Counted from the stretch's first letter, positions 33,914 to 43,825 are shown. The stretch: 64,000 bases of DNA from Escherichia phage JM17 (PP400779); one strand, 5' to 3'. The notes: generated by a model from the sequence alone, not told the origin. Numbers and translations: made by a program.

Positions 33914-34501
33914 ATGCTTAAATTAGTATTCGCATGTGCTCCGTCTAAAACAGTCGATGATAAACTGGAATATGCTTTTGGATTAGGTGATGGACTACCA
34001 TGGAAGCATATCAAACAAGATATGAGTAACTTTGTTGCTCGCACTAAAAACACTGTAATGGTTATGGGTGCTAAGACATTTGCATCATTACCTCGTCTAC
34101 TCCCAGATCGTACTCATGTGGTTGTCACTGATATGGCCAGAAAACTGCCTAGGACTAAAACTGATGAACTTGCACGGTTCTATATCACACAAGCAGAATT
34201 TATTACCTTGGTAATGGGTGGTGAAATTAACCTGTTTAGCCCTGCAACTGACGTACCGTTTAAACTTTCTACTGAACATATTGATGTATCTGTTATTGGT
34301 GGTCCTGCTCTACTTAAACAAGCACTGCCTTATGCCGATGAAATCGTGATGACTAAAATCATTAAGAAATGTCGTGTTAATTCCGATGTTCAACTTGATA
34401 AAGATTTCGTCCAAGATATTATGCTTCAACGTTCTATGGTAGAATCTCATTACTACAGAATCGATGAACTCACCGAAATTACTGAGAGCGTATATAAATG
34501 A
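33914..34501 (+). CDS. frd: dihydrofolate reductase
   Basis: 195 aa; N-terminus MLKLVFACAPSKTVDDKLEYAFGLGDGLPW and VSVIGGPALL match T4 Frd. Confidence 0.92.
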   Translation: MLKLVFACAPSKTVDDKLEYAFGLGDGLPWKHIKQDMSNFVARTKNTVMVMGAKTFASLPRLLPDRTHVVVTDMARKLPRTKTDELARFYITQAEFITLVMGGEINLFSPATDVPFKLSTEHIDVSVIGGPALLKQALPYADEIVMTKIIKKCRVNSDVQLDKDFVQDIMLQRSMVESHYYRIDELTEITESVYK

Positions 34502-35046
34502 AACAATACCAATACCTGATTAAAGATATCTTAGAAAATGGCTACGAGACAGACGACCGTACAGGTACCGGCACTATTGCCCTGTTCGGAACTAAATTAC
34601 GTTGGGACCTTACTAAAGGATTTCCTGCAGTAACAACTAAGAAATTAGCATGGAAAGCTTGTATTGCCGAGTTACTGTGGTTCATGTCTGGTTCTACCAA
34701 TGTTAATGATTTGCGTATTCGTACTCATGGTAGTCTTATTCAAGGTAAAACTATTTGGGACGACAACTATGAAAATCAGGCAAAAGACCTTGGATATCAT
34801 AGCGGCGAACTTGGTCCTATTTATGGTAAGCAATGGCGTGATTTTGGTGGTGTAGACCAATTAGTTGAAACAATCGACCGTATTAAAAAATTACCAACTG
34901 ATCGTCGTCAAATTGTTTCTGCCTGGAATCCAGCTGAAATAAATCAAATGGCTCTTCCTCCTTGTCATATGTTCTATCAGTTCAATGTGCGTAATGGTCA
35001 TCTTGATTTACAATGGTATCAACGCAGTGTAGATGTTTTCTTGGGT
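34498..35046 (+). CDS. td: thymidylate synthase, exon 1
   Basis: Matches T4 TS residues 1-183, ending ...QRSVDVFLG; the in-frame stop directly after GGT is the first intron triplet. Confidence 0.93.
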
Positions 35047-36063
35047 TAATTTAGGCCTGGGTATAAGGTGACTTATACTTGTAATCTATCTAAACGGGGA
35101 ACCTCTCTAGTAGACAATCCCGTGCTAAATTGTAGGACTACCCTTTAATAAATACTTCTATATTTTAAAGAGGTGTTTATGAAAAGCGGAATTTATCAGA
35201 TTAAAAACACTTTAAATGGTAAAGTGTATGTTGGAAGTGCTAAAGATTTTGAGAAAAGATGGAAGAGACATTTTAAAGACCTTGAAAATGGTGTTCACTC
35301 TTCTATAAAATTTCAAAGGTCTTTTAATAAACATGGTAATGTTTTTGAATGCTCTATACTGGAAGAAATTCCATATGAGAAAGATTTGATTATTGAACGA
35401 GAAAATTTTTGGATTAACGAGTTAAATTCTAAAATTAATGGATATAATATTGCTGATGCGTCCTTTGGCGACACATTTTCAAATCACCCATTAAAGGAAG
35501 AAATTGCTAAGAAACGAGCTGAAACGGTTAAAGCTAAGATGCTTAAGCTTGGTCCTGATGGTCGAAAAGCCGTTTATGGTAAACCCGGAAGTGAAAACGG
35601 ACGATGGAATCCAGAAAACCACAAGTTTTGTAAATGTGGTGTTCGCATACCAACTTCAGCCAACACTTGTAGAAAGTGTCGAAAACGTTCAGGTGAAAAT
35701 AATCCATTCTTTAATCATAAACATTCAGAAAAAACTAAAACTAAACTATCAGAAAAGATGAAAGGTAAAAAGCCATCTAACATCAAAAAGATTTCATGTG
35801 ATGGTATTATTTTTGAATGTGCAGCTGATGCGGCCAGACATTTTGAAATTTCATCTGGATTAGTTACTTACCGTGTAAAATCTGATAAGTGGAATTGGTT
35901 CTACATAAATGCCTAACGACTATCCCTTTAGGGAGTAGGGTCAAGTGACTCGAAACGATAGACAACTTGCTTTAACAAGTTGGAGATATAGTCTGCTCTG
36001 CATGGTGACATGCAGCTGGATATAATTCCGGGATAAGATTAACGACCTTATCTGAACATAATG
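35047..36063 (+). mobile_element. td group I self-splicing intron (1017 bp)
   Basis: 5' end taattt...ggcctgggtataaggtgacttatac and 3' end ...ctgaacataatg match the T4 td intron; the TS frame resumes at 36064. Confidence 0.9.
35179..35916 (+). CDS. intron-encoded GIY-YIG homing endonuclease I-TevI
   Basis: 245 aa from the ATG at 35179; MKSGIYQIKNTLNGKVYVGSAKDFEKRWKRHF matches T4 I-TevI. Confidence 0.93.
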   Translation: MKSGIYQIKNTLNGKVYVGSAKDFEKRWKRHFKDLENGVHSSIKFQRSFNKHGNVFECSILEEIPYEKDLIIERENFWINELNSKINGYNIADASFGDTFSNHPLKEEIAKKRAETVKAKMLKLGPDGRKAVYGKPGSENGRWNPENHKFCKCGVRIPTSANTCRKCRKRSGENNPFFNHKHSEKTKTKLSEKMKGKKPSNIKKISCDGIIFECAADAARHFEISSGLVTYRVKSDKWNWFYINA

Positions 36064-36375
36064 CTACCGTTCAACATTGCCTCGTACGCTGCCTTGACGC
36101 ATATTGTAGCGAAGATGTGTAACCTTATCCCAGGTGATTTAGTGTTCTCAGGTGGCAATACGCATATCTACAGCAATCATGTAGAACAATGCAAAGAAGT
36201 TCTTCGTCGTGAACCTAAAGAGTTATGTTCTCTTGAAATTAATTGGCCTAGTAATTTTGAGAATTGGCCTACAAAAATCCAAATGGACTGGGTTACTGGA
36301 ACAATGACACATTCTGATTTCGTTCTTAAAAATTACGAATCACATCCAGCTATCAAAGCTAAAATGGCGGTATAA
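36064..36375 (+). CDS. td: thymidylate synthase, exon 2
   Basis: Begins LPFNIASYA...; exon 1 plus exon 2 gives 286 aa, as in T4 TS. Confidence 0.93.
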   Translation, partial: LPFNIASYAALTHIVAKMCNLIPGDLVFSGGNTHIYSNHVEQCKEVLRREPKELCSLEINWPSNFENWPTKIQMDWVTGTMTHSDFVLKNYESHPAIKAKMAV

Positions 36376-36376
36376 A

Positions 36377-36631
36377 ATGATTTTACGTTTTATTAATTCA
36401 TATGGCACCACAATTTTTGAAATGAAAAATCCTACCGAACTGGATATCCCTTCACCGAATAGTGAAATCACAGTTAAAGGTGAACGATTCATTTGTTATT
36501 CACATGAACGAATTTATGAATATCGTGAATTTTGTGGTGGTTACGGTATGGAAAAAGAACCATTGGTTTATTTCGATATTACGGTCTTGACACCTAAAGA
36601 ATACGAAGAAATTATTGCTGAGGATAATTAA
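36377..36631 (+). CDS. hypothetical protein (84 aa)
   Basis: ORF starting 2 nt after the td stop. Confidence 0.45.
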   Translation: MILRFINSYGTTIFEMKNPTELDIPSPNSEITVKGERFICYSHERIYEYREFCGGYGMEKEPLVYFDITVLTPKEYEEIIAEDN

Positions 36632-36655
36632 CGCTTCAGTTTAAAAGTGTATAAT
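36630..36655 (+). promoter_or_regulatory. candidate MotA-dependent middle promoter for nrdA
   Basis: MotA-box-like aacgcttca, 11-bp gap, then tataat. Confidence 0.35.
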
Positions 36656-36718
36656 AAATTAACGGGATAAATACTATCCCGTTTGGAGTAATGTCTATCA
36701 ACCTATACTGAGGAATAT

Positions 36719-38143
36719 ATGCAAGTAACTAAGAGCAGTGGTGTATCCCAAAATTTTGATGCACAGAAAATTATTCAAGTCTTAACTTGGCAATGTGAAG
36801 GAACACAAATTGATCCATATGAATTGTACGAAGAAATTAAGACCCATCTTGTCGACGGGATGAGCACCAAAGATATCCAGAAGATTTGTATTAAAGTTGC
36901 AGCTAACTCGATTTCTGTCGAAGAACCTGATTATCAGTATGTCGCCGCCAAAGGGCTAATGTTTGCACTTCGTAAAGATGTATATGGGCAGTTTGAACCG
37001 CCTGCTTTTATCGACCATATTTCTTACTGTGTTAATGAAGGCAAATATGACCCTGAGCTGTTGTCTCAATATTCAGCAGAAGAAATCATTTATCTCGATT
37101 CACAGATTAAACATGAACGAGACTTTGACCTGACTTACGCTGGTGCTATGCAGCTTAAAGAAAAATATCTAGTTAAAGATAAAACAACTGGGAAGATTTA
37201 TGAAACTCCACAGTTTGCTATCATGGCTATTGGCATGGCCTTACATCAAGACGAAACTCATGACCGTTTGAAACATATTATTCGTTTTTATGACGCCGTT
37301 TCTACTCATCAAGTTTCATTGCCTACTCCAATTATGGCAGGTGCTCGTACTCCAACTCGCCAGTTCTCTAGTTGTGTAGTTATTGAAGCCGGTGATTCGT
37401 TAAAATCTATTAACAAAACTTCAGCATCAATTATTGAATATATTTCTAAACGAGCTGGTATTGGTATCAACGTTGGTATGCTTCGTGCAGAAGGTTCTAA
37501 GATCGGTATGGGTGAAGTTCGACATACGGGTGTTATTCCATTCTGGAAACATTTCCAAACTGCAGTAAAATCTTGTTCTCAAGGTGGTATTCGTGGTGGT
37601 GCTGCTACAGCGTATTATCCGATGTGGCACTTAGAAGTAGAGAACCTATTAGTTCTGAAAAATAACAAAGGCGTGGATGAAAACCGTATTCGACATATGG
37701 ACTACGGAATTCAGATTAATGACCTTATGATGGAACGCCTTGGTAAAAATGATTATATTACTTTATTTAGCCCTCACGAAATGTCAGGCGAACTATACTA
37801 CTCGTTCTTTGAAGATCAAGATAAATTCCGTGAGCTTTATGAGAAAGCTGAAAAAGACCCAACAATCAGAAAGAAAAGAATCAAAGCACTAGAACTCTTT
37901 GAATTGTTCATGACTGAACGTTCTGGCACCGCTCGAATTTATCCGCAATTCGTTGATAACACGAACAACTACACTCCATTTATTCGTGAAAAAGCTCCAA
38001 TTCGTCAGAGTAACTTATGTTGTGAAATCGCTATTCCAACTAATGATGTGAATGGGCAACAAACCCGTTTAATCAAAATTAAGAAGTCGGATGTAGCTAA
38101 GTTTTATGAAGCTAATCCTGGCGGTATAATTCAAAGCAAATAA
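36719..38143 (+). CDS. nrdA: ribonucleotide reductase alpha subunit, N-terminal fragment (NrdA-a)
   Basis: 474 aa; class Ia NrdA through the active-site loop SNLCCEIAIPTNDVN, then a 28-aa non-homologous tail and a stop. Confidence 0.9.
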   Translation: MQVTKSSGVSQNFDAQKIIQVLTWQCEGTQIDPYELYEEIKTHLVDGMSTKDIQKICIKVAANSISVEEPDYQYVAAKGLMFALRKDVYGQFEPPAFIDHISYCVNEGKYDPELLSQYSAEEIIYLDSQIKHERDFDLTYAGAMQLKEKYLVKDKTTGKIYETPQFAIMAIGMALHQDETHDRLKHIIRFYDAVSTHQVSLPTPIMAGARTPTRQFSSCVVIEAGDSLKSINKTSASIIEYISKRAGIGINVGMLRAEGSKIGMGEVRHTGVIPFWKHFQTAVKSCSQGGIRGGAATAYYPMWHLEVENLLVLKNNKGVDENRIRHMDYGIQINDLMMERLGKNDYITLFSPHEMSGELYYSFFEDQDKFRELYEKAEKDPTIRKKRIKALELFELFMTERSGTARIYPQFVDNTNNYTPFIREKAPIRQSNLCCEIAIPTNDVNGQQTRLIKIKKSDVAKFYEANPGGIIQSK

Positions 38144-38188
38144 AGTACACAGACCGTTAATAAATAATCCATAACAAGAGGAAAAGTT

Positions 38189-38899
38189 ATGGATTATTCT
38201 AAAATTTACAATAACCTTATTTCTAAAGCTAAGAACAGAAAATTAGATTGCTATACCGAATCACACCATATTATACCTCTGTGTATTGGTGGTTCTGATA
38301 CAAAGGAAAACCTGGTAGATTTGACACCAGAAGAGCATTACATAGCTCATCAATTATTAGTAAAGATATATCCAGATAATCATAAATTGATATTTGCCGC
38401 TAATATGATGTGTGTTTATTCTGAAGATAATATTGAACGAAAGAACACCAATAAACGCCATGGGTGGCTTAGAAGAAAATTGGCTATTTCTGTATCTGAA
38501 AATAATAAAGGCAAACCAGCTTGGAACAAAGGTATTCCTATGTCTCCAGAAGTTAAATCTCGACTTCAAACATCTTGGGTGTTTACATTTCCGGATGGTC
38601 ATGAGGAAATTCATCGAGGTCTTAACGAATTTTGTAAAGAGCATAATTTAAATCCATCTGCAATGTCAGCCGTTTGTAAAGGTAAACGGGCGCATCACAA
38701 AGGATTTAAGTGTAAGAAATTGGATAAGATTTCGGAGCTTGATAATTTAGTTTTCGTCAGTAAACCTCATCCAAAGGGATTAAAACCCCATAACTTAATT
38801 GCTGTAAAAATAAACGGTATAGAATATCAATCAATACAACGAGCATCTAAAGCTTTAGGAATTACTAGAAAAAAGGTAGAAGAATTAAATGAATATTGA
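38189..38899 (+). CDS. HNH homing endonuclease (Mob-like) inserted within nrdA
   Basis: 236 aa; HNH motif ESHHIIPLCIGGSDTKENLVDLTPEEH; own ribosome-binding site; its end overlaps the start of the NrdA-b ORF. Confidence 0.85.
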   Translation: MDYSKIYNNLISKAKNRKLDCYTESHHIIPLCIGGSDTKENLVDLTPEEHYIAHQLLVKIYPDNHKLIFAANMMCVYSEDNIERKNTNKRHGWLRRKLAISVSENNKGKPAWNKGIPMSPEVKSRLQTSWVFTFPDGHEEIHRGLNEFCKEHNLNPSAMSAVCKGKRAHHKGFKCKKLDKISELDNLVFVSKPHPKGLKPHNLIAVKINGIEYQSIQRASKALGITRKKVEELNEY

Positions 38900-39878
38900 T
38901 TATGAATTTGTAGATGAATTTTACGAAGATGATGAGTATACTACAATAAAAGTTATTGAAAACAAGGGAGAAGTGGGGCTTTGTACTCTCTCTGCTTTTG
39001 TATTAGATAAATTTGATTGGCAAGACCAAGATAAAATTAATGAACTTGCTGAAGTACAAGTACGTGCACTTGATAACCTGTTAGACTATCAAGATTATCC
39101 GGTTCCAGAAGCTTTAAAAGCCAAAAAGCGTCGTAATCTTGGTGTTGGTGTTACGAACTATGCTGCATGGTTAGCTTCTAACTTCGCTTCATATGAAGAC
39201 GCTAACGATTTGACTCATGAATTGTTTGAGAGATTGCAATATGGCCTTATCAAAGCTTCAATCAAACTCGCCAAAGAAAAAGGATGTTGCGAGTATTATT
39301 CAGACACTAAATGGTCTAGAGGCGAATTACCTATCGACTGGTACAATAAAAAGATTGACCAAATCGCAGCCCCGAACTACGTATGTGATTGGGAAGAACT
39401 TCGAGCTGAACTCAAAGAACATGGAATTCGTAACTCAACGTTGTCTGCACTCATGCCTTGTGAGTCAAGCAGTCAAGTATCAAACTCTACAAACGGGATT
39501 GAACCGCCGCGTGGTCCAGTGAGTATTAAAGAATCTAAAGAAGGCAACTTCCGTCAGGTTGTTCCTAATATAGAACATAACATGGGTCTTTACGACTACG
39601 CGTGGAAACTTGCTAAGAAAGGTAATAAACCTTATTTGACCCAAGTTGCTATCATGTTGAAATGGGTGTGCCAATCTGCTTCTGCTAATACTTACTATGA
39701 CCCTGCAGTATTTGAGAAAGGTAAAGTGCCAATGTCAGTAATGCTTGACGATCTGCTTTACTTCTGGTACTTTGGCGGAAAAAACCTCTACTATCATAAC
39801 ACTCGTGATGGGTCAGGTACAGATGACTATGAATTAGAAACACCTAAAGCTGAAGATTGTTCTGCTTGTAAGCTTTAA
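38889..39878 (+). CDS. nrdA: ribonucleotide reductase alpha subunit, C-terminal fragment (NrdA-b)
   Basis: 329 aa; about 27-aa novel N-terminus, then GEVGLCTLSAFVLDKF... continuing NrdA homology to a C-terminal CxxC tail. Confidence 0.9.
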   Translation: MNIDYEFVDEFYEDDEYTTIKVIENKGEVGLCTLSAFVLDKFDWQDQDKINELAEVQVRALDNLLDYQDYPVPEALKAKKRRNLGVGVTNYAAWLASNFASYEDANDLTHELFERLQYGLIKASIKLAKEKGCCEYYSDTKWSRGELPIDWYNKKIDQIAAPNYVCDWEELRAELKEHGIRNSTLSALMPCESSSQVSNSTNGIEPPRGPVSIKESKEGNFRQVVPNIEHNMGLYDYAWKLAKKGNKPYLTQVAIMLKWVCQSASANTYYDPAVFEKGKVPMSVMLDDLLYFWYFGGKNLYYHNTRDGSGTDDYELETPKAEDCSACKL

Positions 39879-39933
39879 GACTTTTGATTATAATTTACTC
39901 ATGGATGAGTTAATAACTAAGTGAGAAAATATA

Positions 39934-40609
39934 ATGAGTACAGTTTTTAACACACAACAAGTCGATGTTTTGAATGAACCAATGTTCTTTGGTTCTGGTC
40001 TTGGCCTAGCACGTTATGATATTCAGCGACATAAAGTTTTTGAAGAACTTATTGAAAAGCAATTGTCGTTTTTCTGGCGCCCAGAAGAGGTAAACTTGAT
40101 GTTGGACTCTGCGCAGTTCAATAAGCTTCCTCAGTTCCAACAGGACATCTTTACAAACAATCTTAAGTATCAATCATTATTAGATTCTATCCAAGGCAGG
40201 GCCCCATCTGCGGTACTTATGGCACTGATTTCCGACCCTTCATTAGATACGTGGGTTGCAACATGGACATTCAGTGAAACTATTCACTCTCGTTCGTACA
40301 CTCATATTATGCGAAATCTTTATACCGATCCATCCAAAGTATTTGATGAGATTGTATTAGACGAAGCAATCATGAAACGAGCTGAATCAATAGGTAAATA
40401 TTACGATGATGTTCTGGTTAAAACTCGTTATTGGGAAAACGCTAAAGAATTTGTAGAACAAGCTAAAGAATCTCCTGATGCCGACCTTCGTTTAAACCGA
40501 GCTATTAAACAAGAGACCGAAGCTAAACGAGACCTAATGAAATCTCTTTATCTTTGTTTGCATGTCATCAATGCATTGGAAGCTATTCGTTTTTATGTAT
40601 CTTTTGCGT
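39934..40609 (+). CDS. nrdB: ribonucleotide reductase beta subunit, exon 1
   Basis: NrdB N-terminal homology to ...LEAIRFYVSFA; exon boundary inferred (exon ends at a U, followed by a stop in the intron). Confidence 0.88.
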
Positions 40610-41705
40610 AAAATGCGCCTTTAAACGGTAACGTTTATCGAAAACTCCTTTAATTGCTGGAAAGTCCTTTATAGGAAAACTAGCAGCCAAGGTTTTGCTT
40701 GCACCTTTAATTAGTATATTATAAAATAAATATGATTATACTTTTAAGAGGATGCACAATTGAATTATAGAAAAATTTGGATAGATGCTAACGGACCTAT
40801 ACCTAAAGATTCTGATGGAAGAACATACGAAATCCATCATAAAGACGGTAACCGTGAAAATAATGATTTAGATAATTTGATGTGCCTTTCTATACAGGAA
40901 CATTATGATATACATTTAGCTCAAAAAGATTACCAGGCTTGTCATGCTATAAAGCTTAGAATGAAATATTCTCCTGAAGAAATTTCTGAATTAGCTTCTA
41001 AAGCCGCAAAATCTAGAGAAATCCAGATTTTTAATATCCCTGAAGTACGAGCTAAAAATATTGCCTCTATTAAATCTAAGATAGAAAATGGTACATTTCA
41101 TCTTTTAGACGGTGAAATACAGCGTAAATCTAATTTAAATAGAGTTGCATTAGGTATACATAATTTTCAACAAGCTGAGCATATTGCAAAAGTTAAAGAA
41201 CGCAATATTGCAGCTATAAAAGAAGGTACTCATGTATTTTGCGGTGGTAAAATGCAGTCAGAAACTCAATCAAAACGGGTAAATGACGGTTCACATCATT
41301 TCTTGTCAGAAGACCATAAGAAAAGAACATCAGCAAAAACATTAGAAATGGTTAAGAACGGAACCCATCCTGCACAAAAAGAAATCACATGTGATTTCTG
41401 CGGTCACATTGGTAAAGGTCCTGGATTTTATCTAAAACATAATGACAGATGTAAATTAAATCCAAATAGAATTCAATTGAATTGTCCATATTGTGATAAG
41501 AAAGATTTATCACCATCAACATATAAACGATGGCACGGCGACAATTGCAAAGCAAGGTTCAACGACTAGTCTTCGGACGTAGGGTCAAGCGACTCGAAAT
41601 GGGGAGAATCCCTCTGGGATTGTGATATAGTCTGGTCTGCATAGTAATATGTAGCAGTTCATAAGAGAACGGGTTGAGAATTAGCGAGCTCAATCGAACA
41701 TAACG
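40610..41705 (+). mobile_element. nrdB group I intron (about 1.1 kb; boundaries inferred)
   Basis: NrdB homology is interrupted for about 1.1 kb; 3' end ...cgaacataacg parallels the td intron 3' end; contains the I-TevIII ORF. Confidence 0.8.
40760..41569 (+). CDS. intron-encoded homing endonuclease I-TevIII, full length
   Basis: 269 aa; N-terminal HNH-type motif (YEIHHKDGNRENNDLDNL) plus C-terminal Cys-rich zinc-finger region; the track start at 40760 is a TTG codon. Confidence 0.8.
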   Translation: MNYRKIWIDANGPIPKDSDGRTYEIHHKDGNRENNDLDNLMCLSIQEHYDIHLAQKDYQACHAIKLRMKYSPEEISELASKAAKSREIQIFNIPEVRAKNIASIKSKIENGTFHLLDGEIQRKSNLNRVALGIHNFQQAEHIAKVKERNIAAIKEGTHVFCGGKMQSETQSKRVNDGSHHFLSEDHKKRTSAKTLEMVKNGTHPAQKEITCDFCGHIGKGPGFYLKHNDRCKLNPNRIQLNCPYCDKKDLSPSTYKRWHGDNCKARFND

Positions 41706-42208
41706 GTACCTTTAACTTCCATAAGAACATGGAAATTATGGAAGGTAATGCAAAGATTATGAAGTTCATTGCTCGTGACGAACAACTCCATCTCAAGGGT
41801 ACTCAGTACATTATCCGTCAACTTCAATCTGGTACTGATGGCGATGAGTGGGTTCAAATTGCTAAAGAATGTGAACAAGAAGCAGTTGACATTTTTATGG
41901 AAGTAAATCGTCAAGAGAAGGAATGGGCTGCACACCTCTTTAAAGACGGTACATGTCCAGGTATCAATACGCAGAGTATGTGTGCTTTTGTTGATTACTT
42001 GACTGTGTCTCGTATGAAACAGTGTGGTTTGCCATGCCCAATCACTGATGCTCCGACCAAGCATCCGTATCCTTGGATTCGTGAATATCTTAACTCTGAT
42101 TTAGTTCAAGCAGCTCCTCAGGAAGTTGAAATCAGTTCTTATCTTGTTGCACAAATTGATAATGATGTGGACCAAAATGTAATCAATTCATACAAAAAAT
42201 ATTTCTAA
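41706..42208 (+). CDS. nrdB: ribonucleotide reductase beta subunit, exon 2
   Basis: Resumes ...MEGNAKIMKFIARDEQLHLKGTQ... to the NrdB C-terminus; exon 1 plus exon 2 gives about 392 aa. Confidence 0.85.
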
Positions 42209-42212
42209 GGAC

Positions 42213-42234
42213 GGGACTTCGGTCCCACTTTATT
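42213..42234 (+). terminator. UUCG hairpin, possible weak terminator
   Basis: gggacttcggtccc followed by actttatt. Confidence 0.4.
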
Positions 42235-42645
42235 ATGAAAGATATTGCCGCCGAATATTCCTTTATTAAATATATAGAATTGGAGCTATTAGAAGATGCA
42301 ACAATTAAAACAGTTGATGTCCCTAATAAGAAAAATGTCATATACGCTATTGCTATAGATGACGAACTTGTGTATATTGGTAAAACCAAGAATTTAAAGA
42401 AACGCATTAACTATTATCGAACAGCCATAAATCGAAAAGACCAGACTTCAGATTCAAGAAAATCACTTATGATTTTGGATGCCTTAATGCAAGGCAAAAA
42501 GGTTGAATTCTGGGCCCGCCAATGTTTTGACCTTTCAGTCACCAACGAACTTGGTTCAATGACCATCGCAACAATGGACCTTGAAGAACCACTTTTTATC
42601 AAAAAGTTCAACCCGCCTTGGAATATCCAACATAAGAAAAAGTAG
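42235..42645 (+). CDS. denA: endonuclease II (DenA)
   Basis: 136 aa; VIYAIAIDDELVYIGKTKNLKKRINYYRTAINRKD and C-terminal FNPPWNIQHKKK match T4 DenA. Confidence 0.88.
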   Translation: MKDIAAEYSFIKYIELELLEDATIKTVDVPNKKNVIYAIAIDDELVYIGKTKNLKKRINYYRTAINRKDQTSDSRKSLMILDALMQGKKVEFWARQCFDLSVTNELGSMTIATMDLEEPLFIKKFNPPWNIQHKKK

Positions 42646-42674
42646 TTTACATACCACAAGGATTGTGGTACAAT
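42645..42674 (+). promoter_or_regulatory. T4-type early promoter (GTTTAC -35, TACAAT -10)
   Basis: 18-bp spacer containing inverted repeat accacaa / ttgtggt. Confidence 0.5.
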
Positions 42675-42691
42675 TTAAAAAAACTAACTGA

Positions 42692-43825
<1,134 letters not shown>

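Follow-up and report, generated by a model that had tools for sequence, protein, structure and literature searches.

A probable mobile MobE-family cassette splits the ribonucleotide reductase gene nrdA of a Tequatrovirus coliphage

The window analyzed here is a 64,000-nucleotide stretch of Escherichia phage JM17 (PP400779), a Tequatrovirus coliphage in which nrdA, which encodes the class Ia ribonucleotide reductase (RNR) large subunit, is divided into two open reading frames (ORFs) by a homing endonuclease gene, an arrangement that we interpret as a mobile gene-splitting cassette of the MobE family. All features described lie on the plus strand. The upstream ORF, nrdA-a (36719-38143), encodes 474 amino acids (aa), consisting of the N-terminal 446 NrdA residues and a basic tail of 28 aa. 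It is followed, after a 45-nt spacer, by a free-standing mobE-like HNH homing endonuclease gene (38189-38899), with a Shine-Dalgarno sequence, AAGAGGA (38176-38182), 6 nt ahead of its ATG. The 236-aa product combines an N-terminal HNH nuclease, an I-HmuI-type NUMOD-like module, and a C-terminal DNA-binding region. The downstream ORF, nrdA-b (38889-39878), encodes 329 aa, an acidic tail of 26 aa joined to the C-terminal 303 NrdA residues, and its ATG overlaps the mobE stop by 11 nt. Both nrdA pieces were delimited from ORFs, Pfam matches, and alignments. A sequence-only reading of the window had described two NrdA ORFs with an HNH endonuclease gene between them, a ribosome-binding site belonging to the 236-aa endonuclease ORF, and a second NrdA ORF that begins at its own ATG across the endonuclease stop, and each of these features was found where it had been placed. 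Within the overlap the MobE C-terminus (…EELNEY and the stop) and the nrdA-b start (M-N/S-I-D/N-Y-E) are read from the same nucleotides in different frames (38881-38899), a segment under dual coding constraint that is kept in relatives P0002-P0008.

NrdA-a matches the Pfam ATP-cone, the all-alpha domain Ribonuc_red_lgN, and barrel positions 1-221, while the NrdA-b match covers barrel positions 219-523. Between them the two ORFs thus make up one class Ia RNR large subunit as exactly complementary halves. When aligned to Escherichia coli NrdA, NrdA-a covers residues 200-454 and NrdA-b residues 454-751, with homology ending in one piece and starting in the other at residue 454, and the insertion site is the loop between the equivalents of Cys439 and Cys462. 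The sequence-only reading had remarked that the split adjoins catalytic residues, and the alignments bear this out by dividing the active-site set: the equivalents of Cys225, Asn437, Cys439, and Glu441 all lie in NrdA-a, and NrdA-b holds Cys462 (its Cys32), Tyr730/731 (Tyr301/302), and the C-terminal cysteines (CxxC). Catalytic residues are conserved throughout both pieces.

The junctions of the insertion were set against uninterrupted alleles in two backgrounds. The uninterrupted nrdA of phage PaulHMueller, which is 99% identical, aligns to 36719-38055 and 38982-39878, and nrdA-a is 99.4% identical to uninterrupted nrdA up to 38055. At the codon level, about 913 nt of foreign DNA (38057-38969) stands in place of CCT GAT GCT (Pro-Asp-Ala), and the following codons GAA GTG GGG CTT (EVGL, 38970-38981) are a recoded, diverged copy of GAA ATT GGT TTA (EIGL). 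The cassette spans approximately 38057-38981 and comprises, in order, 28 codons and a stop, the spacer with an RNA hairpin, mobE, an overlapping ATG plus 26 codons, and the four recoded nrdA codons. Donor-type flanking sequence extends to 39002, giving a donor-type homologous segment (38970-39002) made of the EVGL codons and a 21-nt co-conversion tract (38982-39002).

A gene split of this kind is a phenomenon known from Aeromonas phage Aeh1, in which the division of nrdA into nrdA-a and nrdA-b around mobE was reportedly described by Friedrich and colleagues in 2007, and the coliphage version can already be seen in public annotation, with a passing mention in the literature. The likeness to Aeh1 proposed in the sequence-only reading turned out to be one of homology, in MobE, the insertion site, the ORF overlaps, and both tails. 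Aeh1 has an nrdA-A of 473 aa, a 46-nt spacer, a mobE of 237 aa, and an nrdA-B of 323 aa with a 14-nt overlap, against 474, 45, 236, 329, and 11 in the window. In both phages the split falls at the same alignment column, in the loop between the Cys439 and Cys462 equivalents, a basic C-terminal tail and an acidic N-terminal tail are homologous, and a hairpin covers the mobE translation start. The differences are that Aeh1 is a Cinqassovirus phage, that its NrdA halves are only 54-60% identical to those of the window, and that the distal part of its tail A is unlike the window's. In addition, the single Aeh1 genome could not show homing, whereas the coliphage alleles give direct population evidence. 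In Aeh1 the pieces form an active (alpha-a/alpha-b)2-beta2 enzyme in a tail-dependent manner and without RNA or protein splicing; tail deletion lowers activity approximately 2000-fold and abolishes both the dATP-dependent (alpha-a/alpha-b)2 dimer and the NrdB holoenzyme (PMC3045599).

The tails are the part of the cassette that bears most directly on such reassembly. The coding region of tail A (38057-38143; QQTRLIKIKKSDVAKFYEANPGGIIQSK plus stop) is cassette-borne and without counterpart in uninterrupted alleles, and specifies a 28-aa peptide, QQTRLIKIKKSDVAKFYEANPGGIIQSK, with a pI of 10.0 and a net charge of +3.8. Tail B (coding region 38889-38969, MNIDYEFVDEFYEDDEYTTIKVIENKG) forms the 26-aa N-terminal extension of NrdA-b, MNIDYEFVDEFYEDDEYTTIKVIENK, with a pI of 4.05 and a net charge of -7.5. 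The corresponding Aeh1 values are 9.9 (+5.8) and 4.05 (-9.4), and the opposite charges were noted by Crona et al. (2010), whose database searches with the tails found nothing (PMC3045599). Aligned with Aeh1, tail A reads QQTRLIKIKKSDVAKF against KEKMLFKVKKSEVDKF and tail B reads MNIDYEFVDEFYEDDEYTTIKVIE against MIEHERIYEVYEDEEYTTVEIE. None of 5000 composition-preserving shuffles reached the observed score for either tail, and cross-comparisons of tail A with tail B gave chance-level scores in the shuffle test. Across 11 lineages, Aeh1 among them, the tail A motif L[IVF]K[IV][KR]K[SKC][DE][VI]xxF is kept and the tail B motif YED[DE]EYTT is invariant, with every tail A basic (+3.4 to +6.4) and every tail B acidic (-7.5 to -13.5). 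In the motif windows mean pS is 0.72, which is saturated, and mean pN is 0.22 (pN/pS 0.31). Because motifs and charges are conserved and pN lies far below a saturated pS, the tails are translated and selected as peptides. The tail lengths of 28 and 26 aa given by the sequence-only reading stand, but its description of them as non-homologous and novel does not, since they are a conserved feature of the family. A protein query of 72 aa (tail B plus 46 core residues) returned one candidate, from a word index that is coarse for so short a query. The alternating hydrophobic pattern of the barrel-adjoining segments TRLIKIK and TTIKVIE would fit pairing as a beta-ribbon, which we offer only as a suggestion of what these segments might do.

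The endonuclease itself shares 45% identity with Aeh1 MobE across 227 of its 236 aa (BLASTP, E 2e-57). A reciprocal search of the phage collection with Aeh1 MobE retrieved the Tequatrovirus nrdA-inserted genes as its closest relatives, followed at approximately 31% identity by genes beside the uvsW helicase gene. The Pfam family PF22083 (I-HmuI_NUMOD-like) matches at 38 bits (cut-off 27, E 1.2e-9). In a set of 25 MobE homologues, E24, H26, H27, and N41 never vary, and conservation is 90% or higher at H50 and H54. Matches among solved structures at the sequence level are the McrA HNH motif (E 0.003) and I-HmuI residues 79-168 (E 0.004). An AlphaFold2 model built from the 25-sequence alignment (mean pLDDT 86) has a single significant fold match in the PDB, I-HmuI of Bacillus phage SPO1 (1u3e; E 1.5e-5, 167 aligned columns), with a low TM-score that is to be expected because the protein is elongated and multi-domain. 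I-HmuI shares the NUMOD-like module with MobE, but is intron-encoded, has only 174 aa at approximately 18% identity, and lacks the additional C-terminal region. I-HmuI is a nicking endonuclease, as are the T4 Mob enzymes (PMC2988022). Two coliphage variants of the cassette were found, a window/e11/2 type and an HY01/F2 type, and nearly all of the difference between them lies in one mosaic block of approximately 250 nt in mobE (38500-38750, residues ~105-187, the NUMOD-like region), which is about 30% different: the window differs from HY01 and F2 at 13-17 positions per 50 nt within the block and at 0-2 elsewhere in the cassette. As judged by sequence, recombination appears to have exchanged a module here, within the endonuclease's DNA-binding part.

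The coding sequences show little sign of decay. All ORFs are intact in six of six genomes checked, dN/dS is 0.14-0.42 for mobE and 0.01-0.07 for nrdA-b, and the latter range includes pairs in which both alleles are split (0.03 for e11/2 vs. HY01, 0.01 for the window vs. PTE-Eco05). By these sequence measures, purifying selection acts on the two nrdA halves as well as on MobE and the tails. Among the best 120 of 8000 matches, all of 751-754 aa, no re-fused NrdA retaining the tails as an in-frame insert was found.

The cassette is not peculiar to the window. In the phage collection 829 records match the nrdA region and 32-34 of them carry the cassette; because the same layout recurs in these independent records, the arrangement is not an artefact. 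The carriers are public records of coliphages and of Yersinia, Shigella, and Salmonella phages, for example e11/2, HY01, F2, UFV-AREG1, fPS-2, fPS-90, Manna, SH-1/2, and PTE-Eco05. Almost all are annotated with two nrdA coding sequences (CDSs) and a homing endonuclease, which in e11/2 is labelled 'MobE'. A large protein collection held graded full-length MobE relatives, from 83% down to 50% identity. All eight metagenomic relatives that were looked up (L088-L095; 50-67% identity) sit in a split nrdA of the same layout, so that the comparison of nrdA loci in related genomes proposed in the sequence-only reading favors its description. In these eight loci nrdA-a encodes 474-485 aa (with an additional intein, 614 aa; L091 is cut by the contig end) and the overlapping nrdA-b encodes 324-329 aa (L093 is cut by the contig end). 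Over 12 loci the spacer between nrdA-a and mobE measures 38-81 nt and the overlap between mobE and nrdA-b 1-20 nt, and a separate stop or start codon for each nrdA piece is conserved in every lineage. In an IMG/VR scan with the MobE alignment the only full-length relative was Aeh1 itself, and the other 79 loci share just the N-terminal nuclease domain.

Within the spacer lies a 13-bp RNA hairpin (38163-38198) with a perfect stem, a 10-nt loop, and a folding energy of -13.8 kcal/mol (z -5.1; none of 200 shuffles was as stable). The mobE AUG (38189-38191) is placed in its 3' arm and the Shine-Dalgarno sequence in its loop. The hairpin is present in five of eight diverged metagenomic loci, with a longer variant in L095. 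When seven distinct sequences are aligned, 96.6% of cells pair, compared with 30-47% in slid controls, and three pairs show compensatory double changes (GC/AU, UA/CG, AU/GC), a covariation score reached by none of 500 shuffles. One compensated position coincides with mobE codon 2 (Asp or Asn). The 5' arm contains ATAAATA, invariant in seven lineages, as part of a late-promoter-like element (38159-38166) recognized by sequence match: AATAAATA agrees with the T4 late-promoter consensus TATAAATA at seven of eight positions, and the exact TATAAATA occurs in L088, L090, and L091. A scan for sigma-70 promoters and terminators over 36500-40100 gave counts no higher than in shuffled sequence and is uninformative on T4 middle and late promoters. 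The analogous hairpin of Aeh1 is unrelated in sequence and has the Shine-Dalgarno sequence in the stem rather than in the loop. That hairpin sequesters the mobE ribosome-binding site, and the position of the Aeh1 late promoters leaves the inhibitory arm out of late transcripts, as in the case of I-TevI (PMC2988022). We infer, from sequence and by analogy, that the window follows the same logic. On early and middle transcripts that read through from nrdA the hairpin would block translation of mobE, and transcripts started late from the promoter-like ATAAATA in the 5' arm would lack that arm, so that mobE would be silent on read-through messages and MobE made only late.

Evidence that the cassette moves comes from a second split allele. 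The cassettes of the window and e11/2 are 99.1% identical, with tail A, spacer, and tail B 100% identical, while their nrdA exons are 79% identical; dS is 0.02 for mobE vs. 1.9 for nrdA-b. The junctions are identical in both backgrounds, that is, for the window vs. PaulHMueller and for e11/2 vs. its uninterrupted relative slur03. On the left flank the window is of the PaulHMueller (recipient) type up to 38054. On the right, five consecutive informative sites (38984-39002) are of the e11/2 (donor) type and the sequence is recipient-type from 39003 onward, giving a left co-conversion tract of 0 nt and a right one of 21 nt. A near-identical cassette in diverged alleles, together with so short a tract, indicates recent homing by break repair, as far as sequence comparison can tell, and the shortness of the tracts suggests that the break was probably made close to the insertion site.

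Taken together, we consider a mobile MobE-family cassette that splits nrdA in a Tequatrovirus coliphage, with an Aeh1-like mode of working and of homing, to be the correct reading with a probability of roughly 0.88. Under this model, neither RNA nor protein would be spliced. By homology with the enzyme studied in Aeh1, the two polypeptides would reassemble in a manner dependent on their tails and share one active site, to which piece a would contribute Cys225 and Cys439 and piece b Cys462 and Tyr730/731. In a mixed infection, MobE would nick or cut a cassette-free nrdA near the insertion site, and the cassette would be copied in when the damage is repaired with the cassette-bearing genome as template. 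The carrier genome would be protected from its own endonuclease by the recoded EVGL codons and the disrupted site. For the window phage, reassembly, tail dependence, and the absence of splicing are thus predicted by analogy, and cleavage by MobE and its late-only expression by analogy and sequence.

Several observations weigh against this interpretation. First, for RNR activity, the absence of splicing, cleavage by MobE, and promoter use, the support comes through homology with a relative that has 54-60% identity in NrdA and 45% in MobE. Second, the Pfam HNH score of MobE is 18.2 bits, below the family cut-off of 21.4. Third, the promoter-like element of the window is AATAAATA and not the exact TATAAATA, making it a putative promoter. 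Finally, E. coli has its own NrdAB and the phage enzyme may not be strictly essential, which weakens any argument from viability and leaves that from dN/dS unaffected.

Three alternatives were weighed against a free-standing MobE cassette. The one that survives best, though we judge it very unlikely, is that the tails are split-intein halves, either functional or a degenerate relic, and that the NrdA pieces are joined by trans-splicing or held together by leftover intein affinity. Split-intein 'fractured' nrdA genes with a homing endonuclease gene do exist (Dassa et al., 2009; PMC2677866), and like the window they have two ORFs with a free-standing endonuclease gene between them. Two IMG/VR loci, L023 (54-3001) and L029 (30-2957), are fractured in this way only 13 codons upstream of the window's site, at NLC/CEI, with an HNH gene (L023) or a GIY-YIG gene (L029) between the halves and a short T4-type mobE directly downstream of nrdA. 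The opposite charges of the N-side and C-side peptides are also reminiscent of natural split inteins, and a degenerate intein origin was raised as a possibility by Crona et al. (PMC3045599). However, the fractured genes have recognizable intein halves (Pfam matches, Cys1, His-Asn/Cys) that presumably trans-splice, and the window tails lack these features. Intein and Hint profiles (PF14890, PF01079, PF07591) found no match in NrdA-a or NrdA-b, whereas both halves in L023 and L029 and the upstream intein of L028, a further IMG/VR locus, were detected. The first residues of tail A are Gln-Gln, not Cys or Ser, and tail B ends in Asn-Lys-Gly followed by Glu, with no His-Asn and no Cys, Ser, or Thr at +1. 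At 28 and 26 aa the tails fall well short of the intein halves of ~100 and ~33 aa in L023 and L029, and against those four intein halves their similarity stays within the range of shuffles (P 0.05-0.9, lowest 0.046, uncorrected). That lowest value, and a P of 0.0035 obtained when tail B was compared with L028's unrelated tail A, are taken as chance because 24 comparisons were made with low-complexity acidic sequence. One metagenomic locus, L090 (1107-4687; ENA ERZ14207129 NODE_16), carries a complete intein (…FFANDILVHN/CLEI…, Pfam PT-HINT / Intein_splicing) and, 12 codons downstream, a MobE cassette with tails; since both are present, the cassette is not a decayed copy of the intein at NLC/CLEI. 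In Aeh1, moreover, the tails persist in the mature proteins (PMC3045599). A very old, unrecognizable intein origin of the tails is possible.

Even less probable is that the insertion inactivated nrdA and that the two ORFs are decaying remnants, the phage relying on host NrdAB or anaerobic NrdD. T4 nrd mutants are viable, E. coli offers a class Ia RNR, and the split does set the active-site cysteines apart. However, both pieces are intact not only in the six genomes checked but in eight metagenomic lineages, dN/dS of nrdA-b is low even between split alleles, the catalytic residues and the tails are conserved, and the homologous Aeh1 enzyme is fully active (PMC3045599). The paired nrdA CDSs of these phages should be annotated as functional halves (nrdA-a, nrdA-b) rather than as duplicates, fragments, or pseudogenes.

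The least credible alternative is a group I or other self-splicing intron that encloses the endonuclease ORF and leaves a continuous nrdA in the spliced mRNA. A permissive Rfam scan of 34000-43000 (E ≤ 1), in which the td and nrdB introns served as internal positive controls, matched the group I core (RF00028) in both controls (35785-36015, E 4e-6, and 41414-41654, E 9e-6) and found no match at E ≤ 1 in nrdA or anywhere in 36016-41413. This also answers the search for group I elements in the flanks that the sequence-only reading had proposed, and with the empty Hint search and its positive controls upholds its claim of a free-standing insertion that is neither intron nor intein. Although introns of this type occur in td, nrdB, and nrdD of T4-like phages, two such introns flank nrdA in the window, and an ORF within an intron looks superficially similar, this reading is contradicted by the empty scan between two detected introns, by supposed intron ends that are translated and under protein-level selection in 11 lineages, by the separate stop and start codons of the pieces in every lineage, and by Aeh1, whose homologue uses neither RNA nor protein splicing and retains the tails in its mature proteins (PMC3045599).

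The MobE cassette can also be set beside other Mob-family genes. T4 MobA, an HNH endonuclease gene, likewise lies inside an essential gene, that for the topoisomerase large subunit (genes 39/60; Bonocora et al., 2011), with conserved extensions at the C-terminus of the upstream ORF and the N-terminus of the downstream ORF, a short host stretch replaced by a recoded copy, and split products that reassemble without splicing (bioRxiv 10.1101/2022.08.31.505936). It differs in its target gene, in a 50-nt translational bypass without counterpart in the window, and in extensions that are longer (~44 aa) and unrelated. The intergenic MobE of T4, RB2, and RB3 belongs to the same RNR operon and has an N-terminal HNH domain approximately 50% identical over ~98 aa, but it is short, has another C-terminal region, lies between nrdA and nrdB, and splits nothing. 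This canonical MobE is reported to target nrdB (PMC2988022). The window has no intergenic mobE in its 55-nt nrdA-b/nrdB spacer (39879-39933), and neither does PaulHMueller. A short MobE-like gene (residues 1-~108) lies directly 3' of an uninterrupted nrdA in L019, L025, L041-L047, and other IMG/VR loci; since many uncultured T4-like contigs show such a gene, the intergenic arrangement is widespread outside the T-even phages.

Related insertions cluster in the same part of nrdA. In L028, an uncultured phage (257-2944; IMGVR_UViG_3300042400_000402), the gene is split in the same loop (…LDDEGE / IALCTLGS…) by a GIY-YIG-like ORF, recognized by motif with no Pfam match; its tails of 43 aa (FKLSLDDGTEV…) and 24 aa are unrelated to those of the cassette, and the same gene has an intein at the SQGG site. 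On sequence, L028 seems to have arisen by an independent genes-in-pieces event at the site of the cassette, and this small stretch of nrdA is, by the loci compared here, a hot spot for several kinds of mobile element.

The genes on either side of nrdA have insertions of their own. The td gene (exons 34498-~35049 and 36061-36375) contains a group I intron (RF00028, within 35173-36015), which is the classical T4 td intron, and the intron ORF encodes a full I-TevI-type GIY-YIG endonuclease of 247 aa (Pfam GIY-YIG, I-TevI zinc finger, and I-TevI DNA-binding domain). The gene for the small-subunit partner, nrdB, was recognized from the ORF list and sequence; its exon 1 (39934-40611) is followed by a group I intron (40612-41654) whose HNH ORF (40760-41569, TTG start) encodes a full-length 269-aa HNH_3 endonuclease, which we take to be intact I-TevIII as in RB3 and not the truncated T4 version. 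With the td intron, the nrdA cassette, and the nrdB intron, the 7.5-kb frd-td-nrdA-nrdB cluster for dNTP synthesis has three separate homing elements.

Earlier mentions of the coliphage version are brief. A bioRxiv preprint (10.1101/2022.08.31.505936) refers to nrdA insertions with conserved tails in a one-line unpublished remark and labels a supplementary alignment MobE_split, and the genome paper of UFV-AREG1, a carrier, suggests that the homing endonuclease might indicate an intron. Our literature searches found no paper analyzing the MobE-split nrdA of coliphages.

A further, tentative proposal, to which we give somewhat less than even odds, is that the cassette is a self-sufficient 'split-and-repair' element. 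Its tails (LIKIKKSDV..F and EFYEDDEYTT) would act as a self-contained zipper, moving together with the endonuclease gene, and would render the insertion phenotypically neutral on landing in any naive nrdA. If true, this could explain how the cassette spread among the T4-like phages of Escherichia, Yersinia, Shigella, Salmonella, and Aeromonas and their uncultured relatives, and a tail pair that also worked outside NrdA would be a natural, portable tag for split-protein complementation.

The finding widens an oddity of Aeh1 from one phage to a family, in which an active site is divided by a selfish endonuclease and, on the reading preferred here, restored by tails that the element itself brings. 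To what was known it adds that the tails and a putatively regulatory hairpin are conserved across at least 11 lineages and that transfer of the cassette between diverged nrdA alleles is ongoing, with junctions precise to the nucleotide. It also adds that the cassette occurs in phages of E. coli, which are genetically tractable, so that questions raised by Aeh1, including tail-driven assembly of the dimer and holoenzyme, the MobE cut site, and the portability of the tails, become testable in a standard T4-type system.

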